A stretch of 60,765 bases of DNA from a virus (IMGVR_UViG_3300033148_002164:1-60765), one strand, 5' to 3'; shown: positions 6,510 through 60,315, counted from the first letter of the stretch. A program made the numbers and translations. The notes: a model not told the origin generated them from the sequence alone.

Positions 6510-6892
6510 GGTGCTGCCTCCAGTGCGGCGACGAGTGCCTCTGCTTCGGTGTCACAGGCGACAGGCTTCAGGAAATCCTCGGCACCGTCCTTGACGATCC
6601 ATCCAAGTACGGGGTGCCTCTTGGTGTTGATGCCGAGCCGTCCCCACGCCTCCCGCACCAGCGCCAGTAGACAGCCAAGCGTGGCAGGGTCGGTGAGGTC
6701 TGGCGTAAGTCCGTCAAGCAGAATCCGCCGCCCACCACCGTAGTACAGCCACCCTCCTTCGATAGCAATAGCACGGAGCCAAGATGTGATTCCGCCGCCA
6801 AGAGGTCGCATAGCCAACATCCCAGGCATCCACCGCCAGTGCTTGGCGGAACTCGCGCGCTTGTCGACTTTGATCATCGCATTGCTCATCAC
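6506..6892 (-). CDS. 'LEAAP' family paralog 1 (possible phage ABA-sandwich-like domain)
   Basis: WMPGM..PDLTDPATLGCLLALVR..EAEALVAALEAAP, shared with 14538 and 14930. Confidence 0.75.
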   Translation of the reverse strand: MMSNAMIKVDKRASSAKHWRWMPGMLAMRPLGGGITSWLRAIAIEGGWLYYGGGRRILLDGLTPDLTDPATLGCLLALVREAWGRLGINTKRHPVLGWIVKDGAEDFLKPVACDTEAEALVAALEAAP

Positions 6893-7392
6893 GCACCCCC
6901 GAGAGGACCCATCACGTCCTCAATGGTCTTCTCGTTCTGCTCCTGAATCCCGACGGCGACGGCCCAGCAGTCGGGGCACACCCCAGAAGGGGCGGGCCCG
7001 ACCCAATCGACCTGCGGGGGCGCCGTTGCGTCATCGACCCATCGACCACAGGCGGCCTTGTGTTCGACCGTGACATACCCGCCAATCCCGAAACTCCCGT
7101 CCACCTTTAGCGCGACGTGGTCGATCTTCCTACTCACCACTCGGCGCTCGCCGAAGGTGAAGCACCGCTCGCCCATCAGCGCCGATACATTCTCGTGAGG
7201 CGTCCAAGCCTTGACGGCGGTCCCGAGTTTCTGCGAGAGCACACTGGCGTACTGTTTGGAGATGCCGAGGATTTCCCCGGCCTCGGTCAGGGTCTTCTGA
7301 TTCCGGAGCGCCACGATGAACTCGCGGGTCTTCTCCAGTCCGTGTTGCTCGATCAGGTTCCGCACCGTGTGCTCCCTGCTTGCTTCGCTCAT
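6889..7392 (-). CDS. hypothetical protein with an N-terminal HTH-like segment and Cys pairs
   Basis: GGAGAACGAC-ATG at 7392; TLTEAGEILGISKQYAS. Confidence 0.65.
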   Translation of the reverse strand: MSEASREHTVRNLIEQHGLEKTREFIVALRNQKTLTEAGEILGISKQYASVLSQKLGTAVKAWTPHENVSALMGERCFTFGERRVVSRKIDHVALKVDGSFGIGGYVTVEHKAACGRWVDDATAPPQVDWVGPAPSGVCPDCWAVAVGIQEQNEKTIEDVMGPLGGA

Positions 7393-7838
7393 GTCGTTCT
7401 CCTCGCCTTTCGGCGTTGGTCGTAGTCTCGGCGGACTGCTGCCCGCTGCTTTGTCTTGCAGTCGTCGCTGCAAGCGTTCTCGATGCCGCTCTTCTGCTCG
7501 TAGGTGAAAGGCTTGTCGCAGAACACGCAAAGCCGCGTGACCGTGATCACCTCCGGGCCGTGCTTGGTTCTGACTTGAGAGATCACCGCCCGGCTTGTCC
7601 CGAGTTCATCGGCGATCTCCTGGTAGGTCCAGCCCTGCTCAATCCTGCTGAGCACTCGGCGGATCTTCGGGTAGGTCCACGGCGTGTAGGTCCTCGCGAG
7701 GCCTCGGCTCCGGAGGGCGTCATAGGCCGCCTTGGGCTTCATCCCGAGTTCACGCGCAACGGCTGCGACGGATTGGCCCTTGGTCTCCCGTGCTTCGATC
7801 AGCCGAGCGATCACGGCGTCTGGATGTGGATGGCTCAT
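7389..7838 (-). CDS. double-HTH protein with a C4 zinc finger
   Basis: SVAAVARELG, TYQEIADELGTSRAVISQ and CVFC..CSDDC. Confidence 0.7.
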   Translation of the reverse strand: MSHPHPDAVIARLIEARETKGQSVAAVARELGMKPKAAYDALRSRGLARTYTPWTYPKIRRVLSRIEQGWTYQEIADELGTSRAVISQVRTKHGPEVITVTRLCVFCDKPFTYEQKSGIENACSDDCKTKQRAAVRRDYDQRRKARRTT

Positions 7839-10404: not shown

Positions 10405-12437
10405 ATGATCCAGCGGCTGCGAGAGGCCTTGACAGCAACGATTCTCACCGAGCCGCCGTAACTCCCTGCAGCGGTGTGGGAGATCACGGCCGACAGGGCT
10501 TGGACGGGACTCAACGCGGACACATCAAGCTCAAGCGTAGTGGTGAAGACCACATCGTTGGACGCGATCGACAGGGTAGTCGTGTCGGTCACCGGGGTGT
10601 TGTCGGCGACAGATGAACCGTCGAAGACGTCTCCGTTCTGCCAGGTGGCAGTGTTCAGTGCCAGCACGACAGTGCCAGTCCCGGTCGTCGTTGGCGTCCA
10701 GTCGACATCAAACTTCACGGGCCGGCTGGTGTCGTCTCCGAGTTCGCCTGGAATCTCAGGCCAGCCAAGCCCGTCGCCCTGGCCAAGCAGGTTGCCGGAG
10801 GCGCTGAACTGGATGTTCGGAGAGACGAGGATGTTGCTGTTGCCAGGCGCAGCAGATCCGGTGAGCGGGATCGCGTTTCCGAGGGTGACGCCCGGAAGCA
10901 CCTCCTCTTGCACCGCGTTGCCGTAGCCCTCAAGCACAGCAGTCTCGGTGACGCTCACCCGATTCGTGCCAAGCTTTACCCGCTCAGCTTCTGGAATCGT
11001 TCCGATTACGCTGGTGATGCGGACGCGCAAGCCGTAGCCAGTGACTCCGTTGATCGTGTCGGTGACCCACGTCCCGGCGATGGCTGGCGAGTTGTAGCGG
11101 ATGTGTTGCTTCTCGACGTTCTGGAGGACGCCTTGATTCGGATACTGTGTGTCCGCTGCATCGTTGCTGCCCATGACTGGAACGGCTGTCCACGCTCCAG
11201 CGCCAGTCGTGTACTCGAAGACGAGCGCGCCGCCACCGAGGACTGCTGCCGTTGTGACGTCGATTACGATGTCTGGGAACTTGCGCGGAGTTTGGCTGAT
11301 CATGATCAGGCTGTTATCCACGCCGGTGCCTTGGAAGATCGGCGTCGTGCTCCCGGCTCTCGACGCCAGGATTGAGGTCAGATCGACGTATGTCGCGGTG
11401 CCGTCAAAGCTGAGCGTCTTCATGCCGAGCGTGGTGCTGTTGCCTTCCCCGAAGTTTGACTCAAACCCTCGAAGGCTGTTGCCGACATTGAACGCTCCGA
11501 GCACGCTGACGCCCGGATCGTCGTTGACGCCAGTATCCACTTGAAGAATCGCCGCATCGACAGCCAAGGCCCAGGCGAGGCCCCCGCTAAACCGTTCGAT
11601 CCTGAACTCGAACGATCCACTCAGGGTGGTCCCGACGCCAGTCAGGGCAGGGTCGACCAGAATGTCGAATGCTGAGGCGTGCAGATGCGTGCTCTCTATC
11701 GAGATGTCCAGGCCATCAGCCGCGATGTGCAGCCCGTTGACGACTGACGGGCTGTTCTCGGGCAGTGAGACCAGATCGAGGACTGCAGTGCCGCCTGATA
11801 TGTGCAGGTAGTCGGTGCATGCGTAGAAGGTGCTGTTCTGAATGAGCGACTTCCGAACGATGAGATCGCCGCCAGTCTGCAGAATGAAGTCATCGCAGGA
11901 GCCGAACGAACCGAAGGACTCCTCAAGAATCAGGTTCCCGCTCGTGAGATTGAAGACCGAGGAGAAGTTGCCCGAGATGTGGTAGAAGCCGATCAGAACG
12001 GTGACGGTTCCAGCACCGCCGCAAAGGACAGCTGGACCAGTGCCGCCCTGGCCAACGACCGCGATCTGAGCCAGAGCGGCGATGCCTGCGCCAGTCACAG
12101 CAGACGTGTCGATCACTGGATTAGCACCACTGACAGGACCGTGGACGGTGATGTTCTCCAGCGTCGTGATGTCGCTCATGGTCACGCGGGTGGACGTTGC
12201 GTCGGCGCCGCTGATGATCACGGTCTGCTGGGTCGAGGCGCTGATGACCGGCACCGCAAACTTCAGTGTGATCGACTCGGCGTAGTTGCCGGTATGGACC
12301 ATGACCGTCTGGCCTGGAGAGGCGTCGTCGATCGCGTCCTGAATGACGGTGTACTTCCGGCCGCTCTTGGCGACGTGGAGTTCTCCGCCTGCTGGGACAA
12401 AAGCCCCTGCTCCTCCGGGTGGGATTGATACACGCAT
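10401..12437 (-). CDS. putative virion appendage / tailspike with a pectin-lyase-like beta-helix
   Basis: HVAKSG..YT.IQDAID.A..G.TV.V..G.Y.ESI beta-helix entry motif; 678 aa, rich in G/T/S/V. Confidence 0.65.
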   Translation of the reverse strand: MRVSIPPGGAGAFVPAGGELHVAKSGRKYTVIQDAIDDASPGQTVMVHTGNYAESITLKFAVPVISASTQQTVIISGADATSTRVTMSDITTLENITVHGPVSGANPVIDTSAVTGAGIAALAQIAVVGQGGTGPAVLCGGAGTVTVLIGFYHISGNFSSVFNLTSGNLILEESFGSFGSCDDFILQTGGDLIVRKSLIQNSTFYACTDYLHISGGTAVLDLVSLPENSPSVVNGLHIAADGLDISIESTHLHASAFDILVDPALTGVGTTLSGSFEFRIERFSGGLAWALAVDAAILQVDTGVNDDPGVSVLGAFNVGNSLRGFESNFGEGNSTTLGMKTLSFDGTATYVDLTSILASRAGSTTPIFQGTGVDNSLIMISQTPRKFPDIVIDVTTAAVLGGGALVFEYTTGAGAWTAVPVMGSNDAADTQYPNQGVLQNVEKQHIRYNSPAIAGTWVTDTINGVTGYGLRVRITSVIGTIPEAERVKLGTNRVSVTETAVLEGYGNAVQEEVLPGVTLGNAIPLTGSAAPGNSNILVSPNIQFSASGNLLGQGDGLGWPEIPGELGDDTSRPVKFDVDWTPTTTGTGTVVLALNTATWQNGDVFDGSSVADNTPVTDTTTLSIASNDVVFTTTLELDVSALSPVQALSAVISHTAAGSYGGSVRIVAVKASRSRWII

Positions 12438-12805
12438 CAGAGCACCTGCAGGCGCTTGAGGACCACAGTCACCGAGATAGCCGCGCCATCACCAGCGATG
12501 AACAGGCTCTTCGGCAGCAACTCCGGAAGCTGTCGCTCGTTCGCCGGCTGCTGTGGCCAGAAGTCCCCGTAGACCCCATTGGCTACGACTGGGAACCGGT
12601 TTGTTCCGACCGCCGCGCCATCCGTTGGTGCCTCAAGCGACCCAGTGACCCCCGCCTCTGAGAACGACATGAAGCCATCCCCCTCGGGGATCACGTCGGC
12701 ATCTGCCCAATCCGGGATCTTGACTTCCTGCCAAACCCCGTCCGAGGCCGTGAATGTGTGAGGCCAAGGAGCCTTGGTGATGTCGCTGAGGTCTATGGCG
12801 GCCAC
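12437..12805 (-). CDS. hypothetical beta-rich protein coupled to the tailspike-like gene
   Basis: AAGGAG RBS, GTG start, TGATG overlap. Confidence 0.65.
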   Translation of the reverse strand: MAAIDLSDITKAPWPHTFTASDGVWQEVKIPDWADADVIPEGDGFMSFSEAGVTGSLEAPTDGAAVGTNRFPVVANGVYGDFWPQQPANERQLPELLPKSLFIAGDGAAISVTVVLKRLQVL

Positions 12806-12864: not shown

Positions 12865-13176
12865 CTACGTCATCTCGAATGGCTCCGACAGCCTGCGCAG
12901 CGCCTCTTGCACGCTGCTGCTCTTGGCGATCGCGTCGAGCACGATCTTGTCGGCTCCGAAGTGATTGGCCCCGTAGGCGACCCGCTTGGCGCAGTGGTCG
13001 CAGGCGAGCCCGTTCTTGGCCCCGTAGTGCCGCGCGGCCCCGCCTTTCCCGCACCAGGTGCAGCGCGGGATGCGCGCGAGCTCTTCCTGTAGGGCGGTGA
13101 TCAGGTCGCGCTCCAGGCCATTGCAGTCCGGAGTCCCGCCAGGTGTGAAGGCGTCATTGTCGCTCAGAACTGACAC
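12865..13176 (-). CDS. hypothetical protein with CxxC..CxxC
   Basis: ORF in operon context. Confidence 0.55.
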   Translation of the reverse strand: MSVLSDNDAFTPGGTPDCNGLERDLITALQEELARIPRCTWCGKGGAARHYGAKNGLACDHCAKRVAYGANHFGADKIVLDAIAKSSSVQEALRRLSEPFEMT

Positions 13177-13394
13177 GAGTCGGCCTCATTGAGGTCGAGG
13201 TACTCGGCCCCGCCGTATCCAGCGTGAGCCCTGCGGAGCCCCGGGCGGCTGGCGATCATCTCCTCGATCGAGGCGCGGTTCGCGGCCTCCTGCTCCTCGG
13301 TGAGGTTGACCTTCATCGGGACATGGGCATCAGAACCCCGTCCGCTGATGTCGAGGCCGTGGTCGATGCTGCTGCTGAAATCGTCTTGGGTCAT
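13164..13394 (-). CDS. hypothetical protein
   Basis: GGAGAACGAC-ATG, with promoter TTGACG-N17-CATAGT (13440-13412). Confidence 0.65.
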   Translation of the reverse strand: MTQDDFSSSIDHGLDISGRGSDAHVPMKVNLTEEQEAANRASIEEMIASRPGLRRAHAGYGGAEYLDLNEADSCQF

Positions 13395-13436
13395 GTCGTT
13401 CTCCTGCACTCACTATGACACGGCGCTATAGTCACG

Positions 13437-19289: not shown

Positions 19290-19667
19290 TTATCGCCCAG
19301 CCGGCCACCACACCGCCACCCCATGCTCCTCACACCGCCTCGCCATATCCGCCGTGCCCCGACCTCCGTGGAAGCCGACCGCGCCGTCGAGTTTGCTGGC
19401 GGCCATCTCCGCGTTGCGGCGTGGGCCTGCGCTGTTGCCGTGCTTCTCCCAGTCGGCTGGGTGGGGCTCCTCAGTGAGGTTTAGCGCGGACTGGCTGAGG
19501 GCGAGCATGTAGCCGCACCACTCAGCGGCGAAGCGGTCGGCGCCGGTGGGGCACGCGCCGTGGACCAGGGTGAACTCCCCGTGTTTGGCGAGGAGGGCGT
19601 AGAGCGCGTCTTCTACGGCGCGGCGGTTGGGGTAGTCTCGGCCGCCGAAGATTAGGATGCGTTTCAA
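19290..19667 (-). CDS. SLOG (YspA/DUF2493-like) protein
   Basis: ILIFGGRDY, VHGA..GAD, ADW..HG..AGP.RN..M and GRGTADM; TTGA overlap start. Confidence 0.85.
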   Translation of the reverse strand: MKRILIFGGRDYPNRRAVEDALYALLAKHGEFTLVHGACPTGADRFAAEWCGYMLALSQSALNLTEEPHPADWEKHGNSAGPRRNAEMAASKLDGAVGFHGGRGTADMARRCEEHGVAVWWPAGR

Positions 19668-20773
19668 AACATCGACGACTGAACGCCGCTCCTCAAGTCC
19701 TTCACCACCATGTCGACATAGGCGGGGTCTGGCTCTATGCAGATCGCGCGCCTCGCCTCGCTTGCTGGCAACTCCTCGCAAGCCATGGCGGCCCTGCATG
19801 TCCCGCCGAACGGCTCAAGCACCACGTCGCCAACGCGGGAGGATGAGCGAATCAGCCTATCGTAGAAACTCAGCGGCTTCTGGCATGGGTGACTCTCACC
19901 GGCGCCAGTCTTCAGACGCGCAAGCCCAGCGACGGTTGGAGAACGCCACACGTTGCCGATTCCGGTTGGGTGGAAGAATGGCGAGCGGGCTGCCTCGTAC
20001 TCAGCGCGGAGGTGGTCGTACTCAGCGCGGAGGTGGTCGTACTCAGCGCGGAGGTGGTCGTACGAGGCGCGGAGATCTCCGCCAGGCCAGACGCTTGGGT
20101 GGACGAGGTAGGGTCGGTCTCTGTGTTGCCCATGCTCCGTCATTGCCTTGGCGCAGGTTTGATAGTGCTCCCAGATAGGAAATGACCCACCTTCCCAGTT
20201 GCTGACACAGCCAGTCAGACCACCAGTCCTGCTCGGAAAGTAGGCAGCCAAGCCCTTGACGTTGAGTCTGGCGGCGAGCCGCTCGGACTTAAAGAAGGCT
20301 GGCATCGGGTTGCGCTCGTCGGCGCCAGCCACGTCGGCGATCTCCGCGCCAGCCCCGCCGTCGAGGTTCCACTCGTCGCGCTGGTAGTGGTCGCATACTT
20401 CGGTGTAGTCCAGCCATTCCCGCATTCCCGCCGCTCCTATGTCCGCCTTCGATCCCCCCTTGTCCCAGATGATTCGCGTCTTCCTTCGCCACCCCATCGA
20501 CTCCACCAACTCCCGCAGCGCGCTTGCGCTGTCATCGGTGCCCCAGACGTACAGGTTCGCCGATGGCTTGCAGATGCGCCCAACCTGCTCCAGGTGCGGC
20601 CGATACCACTCGCGGAAGTGGTCCCACGACTGGAAGCAGTCCCAGTCGGCCTTGCGCATGTTGTACGGGCCGTCGAGTATCGCGAGGCTGCATAGGCCGT
20701 CTGGCAGTGACGGCGCTATCTTGTCGAAGGTGCCTTGGTGGATGGTCGACCTGCTGCTCTTGTATGCTTCCAT
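19664..20773 (-). CDS. N6-adenine/N4-cytosine DNA methyltransferase (beta class) with an inserted HTH and heptad repeat
   Basis: DGPY motif IV, HPCQKP and VLEPFGG motif I. Confidence 0.85.
   Translation of the reverse strand: MEAYKSSRSTIHQGTFDKIAPSLPDGLCSLAILDGPYNMRKADWDCFQSWDHFREWYRPHLEQVGRICKPSANLYVWGTDDSASALRELVESMGWRRKTRIIWDKGGSKADIGAAGMREWLDYTEVCDHYQRDEWNLDGGAGAEIADVAGADERNPMPAFFKSERLAARLNVKGLAAYFPSRTGGLTGCVSNWEGGSFPIWEHYQTCAKAMTEHGQHRDRPYLVHPSVWPGGDLRASYDHLRAEYDHLRAEYDHLRAEYEAARSPFFHPTGIGNVWRSPTVAGLARLKTGAGESHPCQKPLSFYDRLIRSSSRVGDVVLEPFGGTCRAAMACEELPASEARRAICIEPDPAYVDMVVKDLRSGVQSSMF
19995..20063. repeat. perfect 21-bp tandem repeat x3.3 encoding YDHLRAE
   Basis: TCGTACTCAGCGCGGAGGTGG at 19995, 20016 and 20037. 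Confidence 0.95.
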
Positions 20774-22884: not shown

Positions 22885-23616
22885 TCAGTCGATCCGCCCA
22901 TCACAGTCATTGTCGGCCCCGTCCATCACTTCAAGCCCCAGCGGATGCGCCGAAGCATCCCCGTCGTCGCAGTCGCCCGGCTCATCAGCCCAAGCGTCGA
23001 GATTGCCCACGAGTTCCCACGGGGCACAGGCGGTCACCGCGATCCGGCTGTCGCCCCACCCATCCCGATCGAGGTCGGCGTACCAGGTGAAGGTGTCGGC
23101 CGGGGTCTCGTCCACCATGCCGTCGCAGTCGTTGTCGATGTGGTCGCACCACTCAACCGAGGTTCCAGGGTGGGTGTCCGCGTCCTCGTCGTCGCAGTCG
23201 TCGCCGCGCGCTGAGGAGTCCTCAGGAGGAGCGCAGGAGACCAGCGCAGCGCCAGTCCCGTAGCCATCGCCGTCCGCATCGAGGTAGTAGGTCAGCCCCG
23301 CGCCCTCGTCGATGAGCCCGTCGCAGTCATTGTCCAGGCCGTCGCAGAACTCCTCGGCGCCCGGGTAGGTCCACCCGCTGGAGTCGTTGCAGTCGCCGCC
23401 GACATCGGTCATCGCCGGGAGGAGTTCGCAGGCCACCATCCAGCGCTCGGGGTCTCCGTGGCCGTCTCCGTCGGTGTCGGCCCACTGGAGGACCGGGGTG
23501 CTGCTGGCGTCGAAGTCGTTGCAGTCGATGCTCGCGGGCCAGCCGTCTCCGTCCGCGTCGAGATCTGGGGTGAGAGGGGCAGTGGTGGTGCAGGCGAGTA
23601 GCAGGAAGAGGGTCAT
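22885..23616 (-). CDS. lipoprotein with MopE-related 'putative metal-binding' Asp/Cys repeats
   Basis: MTLFLLLAC lipobox-like start; repeated D.DGDG.G and DC.D.....PGA.E.CDG.DNDCDG..DE. Confidence 0.85.
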   Translation of the reverse strand: MTLFLLLACTTTAPLTPDLDADGDGWPASIDCNDFDASSTPVLQWADTDGDGHGDPERWMVACELLPAMTDVGGDCNDSSGWTYPGAEEFCDGLDNDCDGLIDEGAGLTYYLDADGDGYGTGAALVSCAPPEDSSARGDDCDDEDADTHPGTSVEWCDHIDNDCDGMVDETPADTFTWYADLDRDGWGDSRIAVTACAPWELVGNLDAWADEPGDCDDGDASAHPLGLEVMDGADNDCDGRID

Positions 23617-31965: not shown

Positions 31966-32097
31966 TCAGCGTCGCCGGCTGGGTCGCCCGCACAGGGCGT
32001 CCAGCATGTCGAGGGTGCTCAGGGTCTTCTCGTTGGTTCGGATGATTCCCTCGATACCGAGGCGGGTGAAGTTCTTGGCCAATTGCGTTGCGTTCAT
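31966..32097 (-). CDS. short ORF (43 aa), possibly truncated
   Basis: GGAGAACGAC-ATG and promoter TTGACG-N16-TATAGT (32146-32119). Confidence 0.5.
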   Translation of the reverse strand: MNATQLAKNFTRLGIEGIIRTNEKTLSTLDMLDALCGRPSRRR

Positions 32098-32223
32098 GTC
32101 GTTCTCCGTTCTGCTTCTACTATAGCACGCTGTAACGACGCGTCAAGGAACACGATCACACGATCCCGCCCCGCGATTGACCGCCGCCCCGCTCGGCGAT
32201 AGCCTGAGACAGAGGAGGAACTC

Positions 32224-34481: not shown

Positions 34482-34807
34482 GGCCGGCCTCCCTTGCCCG
34501 GAGTTCCGCGCAGCACGCCGGGGCCCTGCTTGAGATTCCCGATCATCTTGCCAGCCATTGGCACACGGACGGACTCGCCGAGAATCGTGAGATTGAGCAT
34601 CGGATGGAACTGCCTCACCGGATAGTCGTGGCCTTGGTCGGAGTAGTGGATGGTCCTGAAGGTTGCCGTGTACTTGACGTTGGAAATGACGCCATCCGGG
34701 AACCTCACATCACAGCGCCCGTCGACTTCAACGAGTTTCACGCCGTTGACGGTGTAGGTGAGATGTTCCCACGAGTTCGTCACTTCCACCTTGTAGAAGT
34801 CAATCAT
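34478..34807 (-). CDS. hypothetical protein (first gene of island 2)
   Basis: GGAGAACGAT-ATG, with promoter TTGACT-N16-TATAGT (34860-34833). Confidence 0.65.
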   Translation of the reverse strand: MIDFYKVEVTNSWEHLTYTVNGVKLVEVDGRCDVRFPDGVISNVKYTATFRTIHYSDQGHDYPVRQFHPMLNLTILGESVRVPMAGKMIGNLKQGPGVLRGTPGKGGRP

Positions 34808-34938
34808 ATCGTTCTCCATTCGATTCACCAGAACTATAACGCAACGCCATGACAAGTCAATCAACGATCGCCGCCCGTGTTGCCCGTGCCCCGAACCCGT
34901 GGTATTTCTTGGGTATCTCTTGCGCGCGCGAGGCCCGT

Positions 34939-48066: not shown

Positions 48067-48311
48067 AGCCCAGCCTTCACGGCGCGCATGCCGTCAGGGG
48101 TGAGGGCGAACAGGTTTGCATGCCTGCCCGCTGTTGGGGCGGCGCCGACGATCTCGACCAATCCCTTGATCACGAGAGCGGTCATCGACTGACTCAAGCT
48201 GCTGGCGCCGTGGCCCATCTCCTCCTGGTCTGTGACCTGCCGGATCGTTGTGGTCCGGTGCTTGCGGAGGTGGTGCAGCAGCCAGCGCTGGCGTGAGCCG
48301 AGGTAGGTCAT
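48063..48311 (-). CDS. winged-helix protein
   Basis: LSQSMTALVIKGLVE..FALTPDG. Confidence 0.6.
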   Translation of the reverse strand: MTYLGSRQRWLLHHLRKHRTTTIRQVTDQEEMGHGASSLSQSMTALVIKGLVEIVGAAPTAGRHANLFALTPDGMRAVKAGL

Positions 48312-48913
48312 GCCTTGAACTTCGGGTCGGATGGGTGGCGGCCTGCGGCTTCGACCTCGGCGTCGGTTGCTGGGCGGTAGTGCTTTGGCTCGACCAGACC
48401 GATTACCCCGAAGCCATACTCGGACCATTCACCAAAGAGCATGCCGTGGGTCTTGTCCTCAGTGAGGTATCTGAGCGAACTATCTGAGTTCTCATCTGGG
48501 ATATGCACGACATACCCGTCCGGGTTTACGCGGTATCCGTCGATTACTCGCTCGCCCTTCTCAGCAAGCAGGCTTGCCACCTCCTGCCGCGCCAGCGCCA
48601 ACTCGGTGCTGAGGCGCTCGATCTCCTCGTTCTTGGTGAGGATGATCCCGGTCTGGTGGTTGGCAGCATCCTCGGCGTCCTTGCGGTGTCCCTCGTGGTC
48701 GAAGACTGCAGCAGCGAGTTGGTCGGCGAGCCGGGCCACCTTGCTGCGCATGCTGATGTTCTCTTTGCTGATGGAGGCCCGTTGTGTAGCCGATGCGGCC
48801 ATATCCAACTCGAGCGCCTCCGCTCGGTCGGTCATCGCCGCCAAGTCGCGGCGGGCCTCGGCCAGTTCGAGGGCTCGGTCTTCGATGTGGTTCAGCAGTT
48901 CTGCGGTGTTCAT
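48308..48913 (-). CDS. coiled-coil hypothetical protein
   Basis: GGGAGAACGAC-ATG; heptad pattern. Confidence 0.7.
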   Translation of the reverse strand: MNTAELLNHIEDRALELAEARRDLAAMTDRAEALELDMAASATQRASISKENISMRSKVARLADQLAAAVFDHEGHRKDAEDAANHQTGIILTKNEEIERLSTELALARQEVASLLAEKGERVIDGYRVNPDGYVVHIPDENSDSSLRYLTEDKTHGMLFGEWSEYGFGVIGLVEPKHYRPATDAEVEAAGRHPSDPKFKA

Positions 48914-48930
48914 GTCGTTCTCCCGTTGAA

Positions 48931-49365
48931 TTAAAGTGCTTCCACCCAAGCGATCCCCGTAAGCAGGAAGCACCGGGGCGCGTTCTTGTCCAGATCAGCG
49001 CAGAGGATGGCCTTCCCATCATCGCGCGGGACGATTCTCCCGATGCGCCTTGGCTCCACCTTGTCCTTCTTGATGTAGCCGATCCACATCTCCTCGCGGA
49101 GACATGAGGCCTCACCAAGCGCGCGGGCGATGGCGAAGTGGGTGGTGTGGCGCCCGGGTGGTAGGCGCTTCGAGTTCAACTCAACCTCGGAGTCGTCGGC
49201 GCGGTAGACCAGCCTGGAGCGGTCGCCGTCGTTGATGGCCAGCAGGTAGCCAGTGCGGCCCTCGGCGTGGATGGCGCCTACGGTGAGGGTGGTCGGCCGT
49301 CCTGAGTCTACGCAAGGATCATCTGTGATGATGACCTCGGCGTGCTGTCCCTTGATGGCGCTCAT
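48931..49365 (-). CDS. hypothetical protein with a WYL-like C-terminus
   Basis: I.Y......R.I.P-like segment and D..KNAPR.F.L..I. Confidence 0.55.
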   Translation of the reverse strand: MSAIKGQHAEVIITDDPCVDSGRPTTLTVGAIHAEGRTGYLLAINDGDRSRLVYRADDSEVELNSKRLPPGRHTTHFAIARALGEASCLREEMWIGYIKKDKVEPRRIGRIVPRDDGKAILCADLDKNAPRCFLLTGIAWVEAL

Positions 49366-49770: not shown

Positions 49771-50424
49771 ATGTCCTCAGAAGATTCAGACGCCCAGATC
49801 GCGATCGACGTAGCCCGCGCCCAACTCGGGCCCGTGCGAATCGCCATGCCTGGCAAGATTTCCGCCTACGACCACACCACCCAGCGCGCCAAGATCAAGT
49901 TGATCGTGCAGTGGGCCTACCGGAAGAAGGACGGATCGATCGAGCAGTATGATCCGCCAATACTCGACGGCGTTCCTGTGCAGTTCATGTCAGCAGCAGG
50001 GCGGGCGGTTACGCATCCGCTCTCAGTCGGTGACGAGGTTCAGGTGTTGGTCAACGACCGCTCCATTGATGAGTACCTCTCGACTGCTGCAGACAGCACA
50101 ACGCCCCGCGACTTGCGCCGCTTCGACATCTCGGATGCCGTGTGTTGGCCGGTAAACATTGCTGCCGAGATCCCAAGCGCCGGCGTCGATTCGGTGGCTA
50201 CCGTGATCTATGCGCCCGAAGTGAAACTTGGGAGTTCAGGAGCAACCAAGACCGTCGCCCTCAGCCCAGACGTGGACAATCAGAACACCCTGCTCGCGAA
50301 CGTGTTCTCCACGTGGGTCCCGGTCCCGAACGACGGAGGCGCAGCACTCAAGGCGCTCTTGACCACGCTCATCGCGACGGGCTGGCCGTTTGCTACTGGG
50401 GCGACGAAGGTCAAGGCAGAGTAG
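49771..50424 (+). CDS. baseplate spike (Gp138 N-terminal-like)
   Basis: AMPG.I..YD, VPV.F, GDEV, DRSID and R.FD.SDA motifs. Confidence 0.85.
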   Translation: MSSEDSDAQIAIDVARAQLGPVRIAMPGKISAYDHTTQRAKIKLIVQWAYRKKDGSIEQYDPPILDGVPVQFMSAAGRAVTHPLSVGDEVQVLVNDRSIDEYLSTAADSTTPRDLRRFDISDAVCWPVNIAAEIPSAGVDSVATVIYAPEVKLGSSGATKTVALSPDVDNQNTLLANVFSTWVPVPNDGGAALKALLTTLIATGWPFATGATKVKAE

Positions 50425-50466
50425 CGGCGGCTTGCTGGTTCGGTTCCGCCGTGTTATGGTTTTTCC

Positions 50467-51252
50467 ATGGGAAACAGAACAAAGAATACGGTTTCGCCCC
50501 TTCAACAGGCCCTGCTGGATAGGCTGGTTGCTGGAGAGTTGGTTCCAATAGTTTCAGTCAGAGTCACCACATGGCGCGGGCTTGTAACCAGGGGGTATGC
50601 CAGATTAGTCGGCGATAAGATCGTGGCGGACATGCGGACTCTTACGCCGCAGGAGGGTCCATCCAAGGCAAAGTTCCGAGCCGATAGGGCCAAGGCCAGG
50701 GCTAAAGCCAGATCCGAGAATATAGCCCAGGCCAAGCGCGAAGCCCAAGCTGAGTGCGAAGCCAAGGCTAAACGTAAGGCTAAGGCTAAGGCTAAGTATA
50801 GGGATGTCTATAGGGCTATATACAGAGCTAAGGCTGAGGCTCGCGAGCCGATGATTCTGGAGTGCTCTACGTGCAGTCTTACCTTCACCTACAAGGGGAG
50901 TGGTAGGCCAGAAAAGTTCTGCTCGGACGAGTGTCGGCATCCTGCAATGTCCACAGTGAAGCCCAAAGCTCCACCCCTCAAGGTTGGCCATGGTTGCGTT
51001 GAGTGCGGCGCTTTTAGGCGCGACCCACGCAAGCGGAGGTGCTCGTCCTGTATCAGCCGGCGTCAGCTGTTCTATACCAGGATGGCCACTCGCGCTGAAA
51101 GCAGCAGCGCTCAGGATATTCGCCAGTCTATGGCCAGCAGGCTGGAATCGCTCCAGATTCTGGAAGTCTTCCACTTAGAGAAGCGCCGGTTGCCGTGTTG
51201 GCGTAAGTGGCAACCCATCTTGACCCCAGAGAGTCAACTCTTCTGCAAATAG
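50467..51252 (+). CDS. winged-helix-like, basic helix and zinc-finger protein inserted in the baseplate genes
   Basis: TWRGLVTRG, (KA)n run, CSTC..GRP.KFCSDEC and CVEC..CSSC; lower GC. Confidence 0.6.
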   Translation: MGNRTKNTVSPLQQALLDRLVAGELVPIVSVRVTTWRGLVTRGYARLVGDKIVADMRTLTPQEGPSKAKFRADRAKARAKARSENIAQAKREAQAECEAKAKRKAKAKAKYRDVYRAIYRAKAEAREPMILECSTCSLTFTYKGSGRPEKFCSDECRHPAMSTVKPKAPPLKVGHGCVECGAFRRDPRKRRCSSCISRRQLFYTRMATRAESSSAQDIRQSMASRLESLQILEVFHLEKRRLPCWRKWQPILTPESQLFCK

Positions 51253-51274
51253 AAGAGGGGCGGCAAAGTAGCGA

Positions 51275-51532
51275 CTATGCCGCGTAGAGGACTACTGCGT
51301 CGTCCGCGAAGTCGAGCCAGCCGTGGATGATTCGGTGCCAATCATTGCCGTGGAGTGGGCAGTCCGGGTTTGACTCATCCAGCGGGCTCTTGATGTCGAC
51401 CACCTTCATCAGACTGTCGCACAAAGAATCATCTGGGGTGACGTTGTGATCGGTGACGCCAACAACGACAACAGCGGTGCTACCAATCGCGAGCACGTCG
51501 CCAACCTTTGGATCGTTCTTCGGATCTCGCAT
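51275..51532 (-). CDS. hypothetical protein (85 aa) downstream of the hairpin RNA
   Basis: GGAGGG RBS; MRDPKNDPKVGDVL. Confidence 0.6.
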   Translation of the reverse strand: MRDPKNDPKVGDVLAIGSTAVVVVGVTDHNVTPDDSLCDSLMKVVDIKSPLDESNPDCPLHGNDWHRIIHGWLDFADDAVVLYAA

Positions 51533-51545
51533 GGCACCCTCCAGA

Positions 51546-51608
51546 GTAAAAGAGGAGCACGTCCGGCCAGCATGGGATGGGGAGAACGACAACCGGACGC
51601 GCCCCTGA
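51546..51608 (-). ncRNA. candidate small RNA or attenuator hairpin displaying the anti-RBS GUCGUUCUCC
   Basis: Promoter TTGCGC-N17-TATAGT (51643-51615); 17-bp stem (51606-51590 with 51569-51553) whose non-Watson-Crick pairs are all G-U on this strand; followed by CUUUUA. Confidence 0.55.
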
Positions 51609-51642
51609 TGCGTTACTATAGCGCTGTACCCCAGGAGGCGCA

Positions 51643-52068
51643 ATGCCTGCACAACGTAGCTATCAGGACATCGGGCTCACAAGCACGCTCGACCTGCCGG
51701 TGAATGCCGCGTATGTCGGGGGAGAGACGGTCATCGCGCAGCGCGTGAAACTCGGCCTGTCGCTGCATCTCGGGGAGTTCGCTTTCGATAAGCGCGTGGG
51801 CATGCCCTACGTCCAGTGGTCCGAGGTCAAGCCGGCCCCGCTGGCCACCATCGCCGCCAAGGTCCGCCAGGTCATCGACCAGACTCGGGGCGTGGTCTCC
51901 ATCCAGAACTTCTCGCAGACCTTCGAGGATCAGGAGGTCAAGATCACGGCCTACATCCTGACCGACGACGGAGAGGTGACCGTCGAACTCGTGAGGGATG
52001 CCGAGGGCCCCGCAAACATCTGGGCTGGCTGGCAAACCCTCGTTCGCTCCGGTCCAATCTCACCGTGA
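51643..52068 (+). CDS. baseplate wedge / sheath initiator
   Basis: IAQR....L....GE..FD...G.PY motif. Confidence 0.78.
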   Translation: MPAQRSYQDIGLTSTLDLPVNAAYVGGETVIAQRVKLGLSLHLGEFAFDKRVGMPYVQWSEVKPAPLATIAAKVRQVIDQTRGVVSIQNFSQTFEDQEVKITAYILTDDGEVTVELVRDAEGPANIWAGWQTLVRSGPISP

Positions 52069-52080
52069 TAGGGTAACCCC

Positions 52081-53223
52081 ATGGCTGCACTTACTGACGA
52101 GGGCTTCATTGCCCCACGCACCGCAGATTTCTCCAGCACCTTCCGCTCTACGGTGGAGAGTTCTGGGGTCGCTCCTGACTGGGAGTCCAACGAGGTCTGG
52201 GGCAATCTCGATGCGTGGATCACCCCGCTGCTCGGTGAACTCGGAGAGGCCTCGCAGGCCTCGTACGACGCTCGCGACGTGAACAACGCGACCGGCATCC
52301 ACCTGGACAACGCGGCCAACCTCGTTGGAGTCGAGCGGCATGATGCATCCCTATCCACTGTGACGCTCCTACTGCAGGCCACCAAGGCTGTGACCATCTT
52401 CCTCGGCGACAAGGTCCAGGACGTGGTGACTCTGGCGTTCTGGGTTGCGACCGAGGAGGTGGTGTTCACTGCTGCTGGCGCTAAGGAGTCTGTGTTCCAG
52501 GCGGACACTGCTGGCGCTGTATCGGCAATCGCGGGCGACATCACCAAGATCGTCACCCCTCGCGACGGCTGGGGCGCTGTCGCTAACGCAGCAGACGCCA
52601 ACCAAGGTGTGGACCGAGAGAGTGACACCAGCCTCCGCAGGCGCCGCGCTGAGTCCGTACAGGCGGCCGGCAGCACCAGTCAGAACTCAATCCGAGCGCG
52701 GATGCTCGCTGTTGACGGCGTGCTCGCTGGGTTGGTTCTCCAGAACGACCTCGGAGTCTCCCAGACCATTGAGGGGAAGACGCTGGACCCTCACAGCATC
52801 TTCGTGATCGCGTACCCGTCGACCATGAATGGCGACCAACAGGACGCGCTGGCTCAGGTGCTTTACGACCACAGCAGCGCCGGGATCAAGATGATGGGCA
52901 CCGACGTCACCAAGACCGTGACGGACATTGCTGGCGGCTCGAGGCCTATCGCGTGGGACTGGGCCACCGCCAATCCGGTCACGCTTGGCGTCGTAGTCAC
53001 GCTCGATCCGCGCTACGACCTCGCCACGGTCACCCCGCAGATTGAGGCCAACGTGCAAGCGTACTTCGACAGCCTGCTTGTGGGTGAGGATGTGCGTCAG
53101 CTGCAACTCTGCATCGCGGCCGGCACCGTTGACGGCGTGCTCTCGGCGGTCTTCACGCCGGGCACCGACATCCCGATTCTCGCCACCGAGGTCGCTACCC
53201 TGTCCAGCCTCACGGTGACCTGA
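52081..53223 (+). CDS. baseplate J/gp47-like protein
   Basis: ATG..LD....G..R, G.D.ESD..LR.R and PHS motifs. Confidence 0.9.
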   Translation: MAALTDEGFIAPRTADFSSTFRSTVESSGVAPDWESNEVWGNLDAWITPLLGELGEASQASYDARDVNNATGIHLDNAANLVGVERHDASLSTVTLLLQATKAVTIFLGDKVQDVVTLAFWVATEEVVFTAAGAKESVFQADTAGAVSAIAGDITKIVTPRDGWGAVANAADANQGVDRESDTSLRRRRAESVQAAGSTSQNSIRARMLAVDGVLAGLVLQNDLGVSQTIEGKTLDPHSIFVIAYPSTMNGDQQDALAQVLYDHSSAGIKMMGTDVTKTVTDIAGGSRPIAWDWATANPVTLGVVVTLDPRYDLATVTPQIEANVQAYFDSLLVGEDVRQLQLCIAAGTVDGVLSAVFTPGTDIPILATEVATLSSLTVT

Positions 53224-55545: not shown

Positions 55546-55842
55546 ATGAAGCCCTTGAGAATCCGCCACATCGTCTCCAGCATCAAGCGAGACCAGGACG
55601 CCATCGACCTGATCGAACTGCTTCTGAAAGGCGGTTACAGCCGCAATGAAGTGATCAGCGTGGTCGCCGAGTTCCTGGATGAGAAGGTCGACTTCGTGGC
55701 CGTCGTGCCCGGCCCTGCTGGTGCGACCCTTGAGATCGTGGACGGCCCTCTCTTCCGCGCTGCCCTGATGCTGGTGGTCCCCGCCATTCAGCGCGGCATC
55801 GAGAAGGCTCGACTCAAGGCTGAAGAGATCGCCAACAGTTAG
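55546..55842 (+). CDS. hypothetical protein
   Basis: GAGGAGG RBS. Confidence 0.65.
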   Translation: MKPLRIRHIVSSIKRDQDAIDLIELLLKGGYSRNEVISVVAEFLDEKVDFVAVVPGPAGATLEIVDGPLFRAALMLVVPAIQRGIEKARLKAEEIANS

Positions 55843-55851
55843 GAGTTCCCG

Positions 55852-56646
55852 ATGAGCACAGCCACCACCGCCAATGAGCTCGCCGTCCTCTTCGGGGGAC
55901 GCAAACCCGAGTGGTCGCAGCAGGCGAACATCTTCCAGATCCCGATCAACCCTTCGGCGGGCGTGGATACTGGTAACTCTGTCGTCACCATGTTGGCTGT
56001 CGCTCTTCGGCGGGTCGCGCATTACCGCTCGGCCCGCGTCACGATCACGACCTTCGATGGCACGGCCAACTGGACCGTCACCATCAACGGAACCGGCATC
56101 ACGGCGACCAATCCATACGCCGATGTGGACGCTGCGCTGAAGGGGCTCTTCGACGCAATCGCCGCAGATGCGACGGTGGGTGGCGCTGCTGGAGCGAACC
56201 AGGTGGTGAGTTCTCAGCTGTTGGACTCGAATGGAGCCGTCACCCTTGGTTCGGCTGCTGCTGGCAATCCTGCGGTGACCCTGGAAGTCTTCGGCAGCAA
56301 TGTCGACATCACCCTTGCGGACATCGATTACTCGATCGACAAGTCGGCCAGCGCCACAGGCGTTCTGGCTGTCGACGCCGACGCGCTCACCGCCGACATG
56401 CGGGTGTACTTCTCGGCGCGCGGCTCCGGTCAGAACCTCCCGATCCCCGGCCCTGAGTGGTGGTCGGTTCAACCCACCTACTCCATCGAGACCCGTGGGT
56501 TCATCGAGCGCCTTGACGTTGGTGGTCTGCAGAAGGGCGCCGCCGCACTGTCGAATCTTGTCGGGCACGCCACAGACGGGGTCACCGTCACCTACACCGA
56601 CTCAGCCACCGTCTGGTGGGGGCCTGCTGCACTTGAGGGCGGCTGA
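55852..56646 (+). CDS. putative virion structural protein
   Basis: Beta-rich; shares a T..V.I.G......L..AI module with 36185. Confidence 0.6.
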   Translation: MSTATTANELAVLFGGRKPEWSQQANIFQIPINPSAGVDTGNSVVTMLAVALRRVAHYRSARVTITTFDGTANWTVTINGTGITATNPYADVDAALKGLFDAIAADATVGGAAGANQVVSSQLLDSNGAVTLGSAAAGNPAVTLEVFGSNVDITLADIDYSIDKSASATGVLAVDADALTADMRVYFSARGSGQNLPIPGPEWWSVQPTYSIETRGFIERLDVGGLQKGAAALSNLVGHATDGVTVTYTDSATVWWGPAALEGG

Positions 56647-58227: not shown

Positions 58228-58631
58228 GTCCTCCAGAAGCACCACCATCTCTGTTGGTGCTCAAGTCGCCTCTCAAGAAGCGTCACCCTCCCCATCAGGT
58301 GGCGCTCTCTTTGCTCTGATCTACTCTCCATTTCACGAGCGAAGAGCAGCATGTTGTCGAGGTAGTCGCGCAGCATGAGCACGCGGCGGTCCCTCAATTC
58401 CATGGCTGTCATCTCTTCGATTGGCATCTCGCGCAATCGATCTTGCATGGTCTGGTCTATCTGCATGTCGACCAACGCCAGCCGTTCCCGTTGCATCTGC
58501 AAATCAGCCGATAGTCCGGACATTTTACGCCTCCAGTAGTCTCCTCCTGACTGCAGGTCTTGTGCCATCCTCTGACCCCGATAGTTGGCGTTGCTTCGTT
58601 CGACGATTGCGAGGCGATGGCGAAAATGCAA
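58224..58631 (-). CDS. coiled-coil hypothetical protein
   Basis: Convergent ORF ending in RWW..W. Confidence 0.5.
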   Translation of the reverse strand: MHFRHRLAIVERSNANYRGQRMAQDLQSGGDYWRRKMSGLSADLQMQRERLALVDMQIDQTMQDRLREMPIEEMTAMELRDRRVLMLRDYLDNMLLFAREMESRSEQRERHLMGRVTLLERRLEHQQRWWCFWRT

Positions 58632-58674
58632 TCAGCCCGCCACTCGTCGCGATATCGCCATCAGAGTAGCACGC

Positions 58675-58938
58675 TCAAGGCACGCCCGACCGCCACAAAG
58701 CATGGTCATCACACCAAGCGATGGTCGGCAAAGCGAGCACATACCCGGGGGCCTTCCACACACAACAGAACCCGGTAAGGCGCCGCTGCGGTTCCCCACA
58801 CCGCTCAGATAGCGCCAGCGTCCTCTCGGCCACACCAGAAGCCTCGAACTGCTCCACGAGCGTCTGGAGGCCGACGTGCACCACTTGGCCCGGCGTTGTA
58901 GCGGCCCGATGGATGCGCCGCTGTAGTCCGTTGCTCAT
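58675..58938 (-). CDS. hypothetical protein
   Basis: CGE..LTG..VW....CRPS. Confidence 0.45.
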   Translation of the reverse strand: MSNGLQRRIHRAATTPGQVVHVGLQTLVEQFEASGVAERTLALSERCGEPQRRLTGFCCVWKAPGYVLALPTIAWCDDHALWRSGVP

Positions 58939-59623: not shown

Positions 59624-60315
59624 GCCGCCACCCCAACAGGAGCAACCCCAAGAGCCGCGCACGCCTCCAGGTACTTGTCCCGATCAGCGATCCAAGCCCT
59701 GTGCCCTCTCGCCACCTGGCCGATCATCGTCCGCGCGTCGGCGATGTGCCTGAGGTAGCCCTTCGCCCCACGAGGCCGGACTCTCCAGTGGTTCTTTCCG
59801 GCGAGCAGGTTCAGGTCCTCGTTGCACTTGTCGATCACCTCGCCGATCCGTGAGGTCGGATTCCTCGCCATGATGCGGGCGAACACCTCGATCACTCGGT
59901 CGCGTGGAATGCCGGCCGGCCTCGATGGCTTCGCCCGCTTGCGGACTTGCCTCGACTTGAAGGGCATCTCCTTCACCTTGACCGCCTTCCCGGTCAGAAT
60001 CTCGGACCAGCGGATCAGCGCCTCGTCGCCGTCTTGGTGGAGTTCGATGAACAGGCGCCGGAGCTCGCGCCGGCCCTCAACGATGGGCTGGAACGAGTCC
60101 ATCTCGATCGCCGTCTTGATCTCCTCGTCGGTGCTGCCCTTGACGTAGAACATGATCATCGCGGTCTTGACGTGCTCGGGGAGGTGAGCGGCCTTGATGA
60201 TGGCCTTGAGTTGCTTTGGGTGGAGCACGTAGTAGGCGAGCGTTGCGGGCACGTGGGCCTTGGTGATGAGCAGGTGGAAGTCGTGGCGCCGGTGGAGCGC
60301 GGTCTGCTTACTCAC
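59620..60315 (-). CDS. putative DNA-binding protein (sigma region-4-like segment)
   Basis: LPEHVKTAMIMFYVKGSTDEEI. Confidence 0.55.
   Translation of the reverse strand: MSKQTALHRRHDFHLLITKAHVPATLAYYVLHPKQLKAIIKAAHLPEHVKTAMIMFYVKGSTDEEIKTAIEMDSFQPIVEGRRELRRLFIELHQDGDEALIRWSEILTGKAVKVKEMPFKSRQVRKRAKPSRPAGIPRDRVIEVFARIMARNPTSRIGEVIDKCNEDLNLLAGKNHWRVRPRGAKGYLRHIADARTMIGQVARGHRAWIADRDKYLEACAALGVAPVGVAA

Follow-up and report, generated by a model that had tools for sequence, protein, structure and literature searches.

The locus described here lies in the baseplate module of a phage whose whole contig, a stretch of 60,765 bp with a G+C content of 62.4%, is the window of this analysis. A short leftward unit is inserted there antisense to its neighbours, between the plus-strand spike gene and the wedge and J genes (51643-53223), and its predicted transcript would open with a hairpin whose loop is antisense to a ribosome-binding motif found before other genes of the phage. 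The question is therefore whether this loop acts on those genes, serves only the unit in which it lies, or carries the motif for some other reason.

Promoter, hairpin and downstream gene at the baseplate locus

Genes were called with a crude codon-score caller. A leftward arm of about 1-24.3 kb carries RecT-like and RecE-like recombination genes, three DNA methyltransferases, an O-like replication initiator and a Cro/CI-type HTH protein. The structural genes are on the plus strand from about 25 kb, and several small minus-strand islands break into them. The baseplate module has the spike (49771-50424, plus) first in order. The variable gap behind it is filled by a 261-aa ORF of atypical composition (50467-51252, plus) and an 85-aa ORF (51275-51532, minus). 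The gp25-like baseplate wedge gene (51643-52068, plus; phrog_120, E 7.7e-16) is divergent from the hairpin promoter, and baseplate J (52081-53223, plus) comes directly after it in the module. Homologues of the wedge were found in G006-G009, four IMG/VR contigs reached via capsid alignment (capsid identity 41-52%, wedge identity 30-39%). Between spike and wedge these contigs have unrelated genes or none, and no minus-strand insert was present at that place in any of the four. By this comparison, the spike-wedge gap is a replacement hotspot and the hairpin unit is specific to this phage. A capsid homologue with a higher identity (65%) is encoded on a contig of 54,886 bp.

The 85-aa ORF has a coding score of 0.31-0.39 per codon and a GC3 of 0.70. 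Its protein had no family match, and an exhaustive HMMER search of 1.84 billion representatives returned only the protein itself. When the wedge and 85-aa proteins were compared with an index of 5.8 billion proteins, only they themselves were returned, with three contigs on record for the identical proteins, and a protein atlas gave for the 85-aa protein only leads below the bar for naming. Searches of viral, metagenome and genome contigs with the wedge, 85-aa and J proteins found no close relative, nor did blastn of the locus against phages.

The initial annotation had placed a promoter, a stem, a loop and a CUUUUA tract on the minus strand, and all positions given there match the sequence. 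The -35 hexamer TTGCGC (51643-51638) lies partly over the ATG that starts the wedge gene on the other strand and is separated by a 17-nt spacer from the -10 element TATAGT (51620-51615), which forms part of the extended -10 GCTATAGT (51615-51622). The extended element occurs four times in the genome against 0.17 expected. TATAGT itself is found only six times, mostly before minus-strand genes and with a TTGNNN hexamer 16-17 nt upstream. Moreover, the pattern TTG(C/A)CG-N-GCTAYWRT has four sites here (51643, 39426, 32146 and 22852), all leftward and before minus-strand genes, and 12 occurrences in the distant relative G006. Given this recurrence, TTGCGC-N17-GCTATAGT is a credible promoter of a lineage-wide, host-type (sigma-70-like) class, as judged from its consensus match, with a predicted start.

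The 5' arm of the 17-bp stem, AGGGGCGCGTCCGGTTG (51606-51590, minus), begins 8 nt past the last base of the -10 element, about 2-4 nt past the predicted transcription start, or about 1-3 nt from a start at the typical distance. It is followed by the 20-nt loop UCGUUCUCCCCAUCCCAUGC (51589-51570, minus) and the 3' arm TGGCCGGACGTGCTCCT (51569-51553, minus), which was placed by sequence and folding. The stem consists of 12 Watson-Crick and five G-U pairs, and on the plus strand all five G-U pairs turn into C-A mismatches. The minus-strand 63 nt had a minimum free energy (MFE) of -30.1 kcal/mol (z -4.52), and 0 of 200 shuffles were equally good, compared to -21.6 kcal/mol (z -1.91) and 12 of 200 shuffles for the plus strand. 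The G-U pairs favour a hairpin of the minus strand, as had been argued before. In an 82-nt segment with flanks the hairpin signal was diluted to z -1.68, and a DNA inverted-repeat search omits the hairpin because it scores G-T as a mismatch.

Within the loop, UCUCCCCAUCCC was predicted to be at least 98% unpaired. The anti-motif UGUCGUUCUCCCC (51579-51591, minus), which is the reverse complement of GGGGAGAACGACA, extends from the loop into the stem. The initial annotation had read the antisense stretch from the weak top of the stem plus the loop. Of this stretch, just UCUCCCC is predicted to be fully unpaired, together with the rest of the loop, and UGUCGU sits in the weak, G-U-rich top of the stem and in an inner helix of 3 bp. 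As long as the RNA is free, six of the 13 complementary bases would thus be partly paired, and about 4.7 kcal/mol is needed to open them. The loop has 20 nt, or 12 nt with the inner helix formed.

Behind the stem, a CUUUUAC tract (51552-51546, minus) may be a weak terminator or an attenuator. The Shine-Dalgarno (SD) sequence of the 85-aa gene, GGAGGG (51542-51537, minus), is without the shared motif, and the gene starts at the ATG at 51532-51530. A discrete sRNA of about 60 nt had been proposed for this place. The anatomy does not fit it well: the loop is 20 nt long, the tract has four U, the hairpin is absent from the output of the terminator scan, and a ribosome-binding site (RBS) with a coding-like ORF begins 10 nt past CUUUUAC. 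The clearer terminators of this phage likewise have short U runs, and weak or partial termination at the CUUUUA tract is possible. Because an SD sequence and a coding-like 85-aa frame come directly 3' of it, the hairpin would, at a minimum, serve as the 5' leader of this small gene without homologues, and not be an isolated sRNA gene. No Rfam family reached its gathering score in the window, phage antisense RNA families included, and at E ≤ 10 the sole match in 51200-51900 was to an unrelated sRNA at chance level (E 3.1).

The shared start motif and its antisense copy

The 10-mer GGAGAACGAC has seven copies in the genome against 0.26 expected, and together with its one-base-shifted neighbour it is the most over-represented 10-mer. 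The 11-mer GGAGAACGACA also has seven copies, against 0.04 expected on both strands. Six of the exact copies are on the minus strand, and five of these adjoin an ATG with zero spacing. The exact motif GGAGAACGACATG stands at 1914-1926 before a 142-aa gene (1488-1916), at 7390-7402 before the gene at 6889-7392, at 13392-13404 before the gene at 13164-13394 and just 3' of TTGACG-N17-CATAGT, at 32095-32107 before a 43-aa ORF (31966-32097) and downstream of a TTGACG...GCTATAGT promoter, and at 48911-48923 before the gene at 48308-48913, where a preceding G makes it the longest loop match (12 nt). The sixth copy, before the recT-like gene (1997-2848), has CC before the ATG and reads GGAGAACGACACC followed by ATG (2849-2861). 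A search for GGAGAACGACATG that allowed two mismatches at most gave 15 matches against 2.16 expected, 12 of them on the minus strand, and at least six further minus-strand starts bear variants with one or two mismatches. One of these, GGAGAACGATATG (34805-34817, minus; one mismatch), lies downstream of a TTGACT...TATAGT promoter. The form GGAGAACGACAUG is seen at starts such as 48913, 32097 and recT.

Followed by AUG, the motif GGAGAACGAC takes in the SD sequence and the spacer and reaches the initial base of the start codon. It is over-represented, asymmetric, SD-containing and start-adjacent, stands in one orientation on non-structural genes, and has a lone reverse copy. Four of the six exact sense copies lie in the recombination and replication arm, and we infer that the genes bearing the motif are early genes.

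The seventh exact copy is on the plus strand (51581-51591), inverted relative to the others, inside the hairpin loop, in a short stretch of non-coding sequence and with no start codon 3' of it. That the loop is antisense to a shared RBS, as first noticed, is borne out by these counts, with six of the seven copies before minus-strand ATGs. The accompanying remark that this is the lone copy lacking a start codon is right for the exact 10-mer and needs one addition: a second wrong-strand near-copy, TGAGAACGACATG (12659-12671, plus), lies inside the minus-strand gene at 12437-12805 and is by itself weakly significant. The probability of a wrong-strand copy of the 11-mer anywhere in the genome is about 0.02, and it is far less for a copy landing in a hairpin loop. 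Chance is a poor explanation for an inverted copy, 11-13 nt long, of the top motif of the genome, centred in a hairpin that is strand-specific and adjoins a promoter of the family type.

G006 has 12 cassettes of the form TTGCGC-N-GCTACTAT-N5-GTAGCAAGGAG-N5-ATG. One of them, GGAGAACGACATGAGCGAAGCA, is identical to the start of the gene at 7392 (at position 6864 of G006 the same motif is followed by the same first codons), and the motif is therefore older than this phage. In G006, which has these 12 promoter-leader-RBS cassettes, the start motif that it uses itself was not found in antisense. A scan of viral contigs with a 14-mer of the motif gave at least 118 matches, mostly single and at chance level, and the sole informative contig was the unrelated G001. 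There, three tandem small genes are each preceded by GCCCGCTACAGGAGAACGAC(A/G)TG, which gives three copies of GGAGAACGAC in sense orientation, and GGAGAACGA was not found there in antisense. An exact 18-mer from the loop had no match in viral contigs.

Possible roles of the hairpin loop

The loop is a perfect match of 11-12 nt to six starts, and the net ΔG at the six exact sites was -2.4 to -13.7 kcal/mol. Duplexes were ranked over 100 predicted starts, with the interaction limited to the loop and the opening energies of both partners added. A ranking with the whole RNA was discarded because of spurious long duplexes that unfold the stem. In the loop-restricted version, the 14 motif-like starts took ranks 2, 3, 4, 6, 7, 8, 9, 11, 14, 18, 22, 23, 29 and 42, with a median ΔG of -8.2 kcal/mol compared to +3.0 kcal/mol for the others (Mann-Whitney p 2e-7). 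The initial annotation had proposed a comparison with other starts that have strong SD sequences, and the motif-like starts do rank above the 27 of these without the motif (p 3e-5). Both results are largely circular, since the motif itself defined the finding. Rank 1 went to a late gene on the plus strand (28856) that lacks the motif, and the exact-motif start 13394 ranked just 23 because its site is poorly accessible.

From these observations, the following sequence of events can be proposed. The leftward promoter (51643-51615) would fire, and the transcript would open almost at once with the 17-bp hairpin. The loop would expose UCUCCCC, and the full UGUCGUUCUCCCC would become available once the stem has melted at its weak G-U top. 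The transcript would be the leader of the 85-aa gene, and a fraction may end at CUUUUA as an RNA of about 60 nt. The loop could then pair in trans with the initiation regions of the six minus-strand genes bearing the exact motif and roughly 6-8 bearing variants, and this pairing would lower or tune the translation of the motif-bearing genes as a set. In a sub-variant, the pairing would work the other way, with the target mRNAs titrating the leader and thereby governing the 85-aa gene. The feature is real and non-random and the mechanism is plausible on the sequence evidence. Pairing of the loop in trans with the motif-bearing starts, in an anti-RBS role, is the reading that we put forward, tentatively and with a little less than even confidence. 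As to timing, an early-to-late or latency switch had been suggested. The promoter of the hairpin RNA is of the same class as those at the proposed targets 13394 and 32097, and a simple early-to-late switch does not follow because of this shared class. If the loop does pair with the motif, one short RNA would control the translation of a dispersed phage regulon.

A role of the hairpin confined to its own mRNA is somewhat unlikely. It would then be a 5'-terminal stem-loop that stabilises the 85-aa mRNA or sets its translation, and the match to the motif would be incidental or left over. The position of the hairpin, about 2-4 nt past the predicted start and with an SD sequence and a coding-like ORF within 10-20 nt, agrees with such a role, as does the lack of a canonical terminator call, and in the MFE fold a small downstream hairpin partly covers the SD sequence of the gene. 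To our knowledge, most leader hairpins have no role in trans. However, a stabiliser needs no 20-nt loop, and this loop has no complementarity to the GGAGGG of its own gene, yet it matches the top motif of the genome over 11-13 nt. The probability of about 0.02 for a wrong-strand 11-mer genome-wide, and the far lower value for one in a loop, also argue against an incidental match. A leftover match could be the fossil RBS of a lost gene. This candidate was rejected: tblastn of the gap genes of the relatives against the window gave nothing in 50400-51700, and no decayed plus-strand ORF was found that would explain such a fossil.

It is quite unlikely that the unit acts in cis as an antisense element on the late baseplate transcript of the plus strand, through loop-loop kissing with the mirror hairpin, dsRNA formation or transcriptional interference, or that the plus-strand GGGGAGAACGACA is itself functional, for example as a protein-binding or ribosome standby site before the wedge gene. 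The placement of a minus-strand unit between the plus-strand spike and the wedge and J genes, with its -35 hexamer over the wedge ATG, would suit this. Furthermore, the motif lies in a predicted loop on the plus strand as well, and GCGCCCCUG can pair with the SD region of the wedge gene, CAGGAGGCGC. On the other hand, the predicted plus-strand fold is a weak one, with z -1.91 over the hairpin and z -0.07 over a 115-nt span, all the wobble pairs favour the minus strand, the plus-strand motif has no start codon behind it, and read-through on the plus strand would have to be assumed.

Slightly less likely still is a DNA-level or accidental origin, in which GGAGAACGAC would be an asymmetric protein-binding site (operator-like or stoperator-like) that is used in both orientations, or the inverted copy a recombination scar or coincidence: the motif does lie 7-23 nt 3' of a -10 element at four promoter-like sites (13394, 32097, 34807 and 51581), and the inverted copy is oriented like the surrounding plus-strand operon in a gap that is a gene-replacement hotspot, but five of the six sense copies contain an SD sequence and adjoin ATG with zero spacing, which points to translation, several copies have no promoter nearby, a scar is not expected to be centred in a 17-bp inverted repeat in which every mismatch is a wobble pair on one strand, and only 0.04 copies are expected by chance.

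Chance explains the inverted copy poorly, the locking of the sense copies to ATG makes a DNA-level site unlikely, and a fossil RBS left no trace of a lost gene. This leaves a role at the RNA level, which may be repression of the motif-bearing starts in trans, sensing of their mRNAs by the leader, or cis-antisense action on the late baseplate transcript. Even without a role in trans, the locus documents family-wide promoter-leader-RBS cassettes and a gene-replacement hotspot in a baseplate operon.

Comparison with known systems

Among the small RNAs of phages, C4 of P1, CI of P4 and sar of P22 use exposed loops to pair with repeated sites, including ribosome-binding regions, and in this way block the expression of lytic functions. 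They act on one or two sites in one operon and are processed from longer transcripts, whereas 6-14 dispersed starts are the candidate targets here. The curated Rfam models of the P1 C4 and P4 CI families had no match in the window. In Staphylococcus aureus, RNAIII and RsaE pair through a C-rich hairpin loop with a UCCC or CUCC core with the SD sequences of many mRNAs and block initiation. These RNAs are chromosomal, have canonical terminators and gain specificity from short seeds. Unlike in these RNAs, the complementarity here covers the spacer as far as the start codon of a motif specific to the phage, and the RNA would double as the leader of an mRNA. RegA of T4 is a single phage factor that acts at the initiation regions of numerous early mRNAs, which it recognises, and turns off their translation; it is a protein, and the candidate factor here is an RNA. 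A regulon-wide phage RNA of this kind was not found in the literature, as far as the accessible text of the papers goes.

The closest likeness is to the start-associated sequence (SAS) of the Cluster K mycobacteriophages. In the accessible sections of its description, the SAS is a 13-bp sequence located 3-7 bp before the starts of non-structural genes, with 11-19 copies in one orientation, and a factor interacting with it, "either RNA or protein", was proposed (Pope et al., 2011; PMC3203893). The excerpts available from papers of 2024 and 2025 still call its role unknown (PMC11373665; PMC12699233). Like the SAS, the present motif is an asymmetric repeat in which the SD core is embedded and which reaches beyond it, and both stand within a few bases of mostly ATG starts of non-structural genes in one orientation. 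In addition, promoter cassettes precede some of the copies, namely the ESAS there and TTGCGC...GCTAYWRT here and in G006. On the other hand, motif sequence, host and phage lineage are unrelated, with no homology to GGGATAGGAGCCC, and the nearest phage-database matches of the baseplate J protein were below 30% identity, none of them a mycobacteriophage. The SAS has 13 bp and 11-19 copies, compared to 10-11 nt and six exact copies plus variants here, and its extension flanks the SD core on both sides, while the extension here is the spacer 3' of the SD.

The single reverse SAS copy also lies in the apical loop of a hairpin, and this hairpin is supported by covariation. In Anaya, gp96 and gp97 are separated by a gap of 385 bp that contains the reverse copy, and on the transcribed strand this copy forms the apical loop CCUCCUAUCC of a GCGCGG/CCGCGC stem that is nested in a second helix. 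When 13 of the 138 Cluster K phages with a match were aligned, the paired cells made up 95.5%, compared to 36-45% in slid controls, with eight compensatory pairs, and 0 of 500 shuffles were as good. In Adephagia, the element is in the gap between genes 92 and 93 (58447-58878), and late transcription apparently initiates between these two genes, according to the available part of a recent paper (PMC11373665). A near-perfect anti-SAS loop is kept in 8 of the 13 sampled phages. Three others (Amginevirus) have the anti-SD core alone in the loop, although DarthP still has 13 exact SAS copies, and the remaining two have unrelated loops. The initial annotation had asked whether relatives keep the motif and lose the loop. 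The evidence comes from distant systems only and is mixed: G006, with its own start motif, and G001 have sense copies without an antisense copy, and the loop is kept in 8 of the 13 Cluster K phages sampled.

A second, unrelated group of phages thus has the same layout, in which a start motif of non-structural genes is accompanied by one antisense copy that a hairpin displays in its loop, within another transcript's leader, and the support for this is not clean. Since the function of the SAS is itself described as unknown, it serves as an analogy and not as an established mechanism, and the phage studied here may be called SAS-like but not a member of that group. If the proposed pairing is true, the SAS of Cluster K would gain a concrete and testable partner. 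A general rule would be that phages which tag a class of genes with an SD-embedded motif also encode one hairpin-borne antisense copy of it, in a separately controlled leader, as the missing trans factor, by which the tagged class would be switched off or tuned at translation initiation, and that this arrangement arose independently here and in Cluster K. We consider this rule rather unlikely. If it were true, it would answer what the SAS is for, a question that the accessible sections of these papers describe as open since 2011.

Plus-strand surroundings of the hairpin

A 261-aa ORF (50467-51252, plus strand) had a low codon score of 0.04 per codon and a GC3 of 0.62. Its product contains a repeat rich in Lys and Ala, and the motifs at its C-terminus are Cys-rich; the sole PHROG match was a weak one to an HNH-endonuclease (E = 1.1e-5). 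This ORF is probably a recently acquired gene. In a plus-strand RNA spanning 51591-51642, the segment GCGCCCCUG, belonging to an arm of the mirror hairpin, was predicted to be able to pair with CAGGAGGCGC and would thereby cover the SD of the gp25-like baseplate wedge gene; the plus-strand fold with this pairing was not significant overall (z = -0.07).

Further motif copies and stems in the window

Besides the loop of the hairpin, a near-copy of the start motif, TGAGAACGACATG, was found on the wrong strand. It lies on the plus strand at 12659-12671, inside the minus-strand gene 12437-12805, and the early mRNA, in which the motif precedes the start at 13394, therefore carries UCAUGUCGUUCUCA some 720 nt downstream of that start. 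This UCAUGUCGUUCUCA could engage in long-range pairing, or its presence could be due to chance. A shortened motif, GGAGAACGA-ATG, heads the minus-strand gene 22885-23616, whose 243-aa product matches the Pfam 'putative metal-binding motif' MopE three times (E = 2.1e-29).

The window phage has a further large-loop stem, GGUGCUUCC / GGAAGCAC (48924-48975, minus strand), with a 22-nt loop followed by UUUAAUU. It is located upstream of the start at 48913, which is the best-matching proposed target. Separately, the k-mer table revealed three tandem repeats of 21 bp each at 20001-20060, within the methyltransferase gene 19664-20773.

Motif genes and repeats in other contigs

In contig G001 (L119 1490-1915), three small genes are arranged in tandem with GCCCGCTACAGGAGAACGAC(A/G)TG ahead of each; otherwise only a methyltransferase-like gene is shared with the window phage. 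Among the distant relatives reached via capsid alignment, G007 carries 27-bp tandem repeats at both ends (1-290 and 64908-64988), within its terminal repeats. Another, G006, has a long array with a 15-bp periodicity at 55620-56370, probably a Gly-X-Y-type repeat within a fibre gene.

Cluster K structured region and promoter cassettes

The last large intergenic gap of the Cluster K phages contains a conserved structured region (Anaya 59789-59959; Adephagia 58600-58800, L161 2100-2300), which is labelled as a hypothetical protein in some records (Angelica gp92, Validus gp103). It forms at least three helices with compensatory changes, and the reverse SAS, the lone inverted copy of the start-associated sequence, is in its apical loop.

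Twelve near-identical cassettes, each composed of a promoter, a short leader and an RBS (TTGCGC...GCTACTAT...GTAGCAAGGAG...ATG), were found in G006 (L140-L142). They occur on both strands, for example at 6865 and 11935 (minus) and at 12652, 26532 and 26820 (plus); two of them, at 26498 and 26786, form a duplicated pair. This arrangement resembles that of the ESAS promoter cassette plus SAS in Cluster K.
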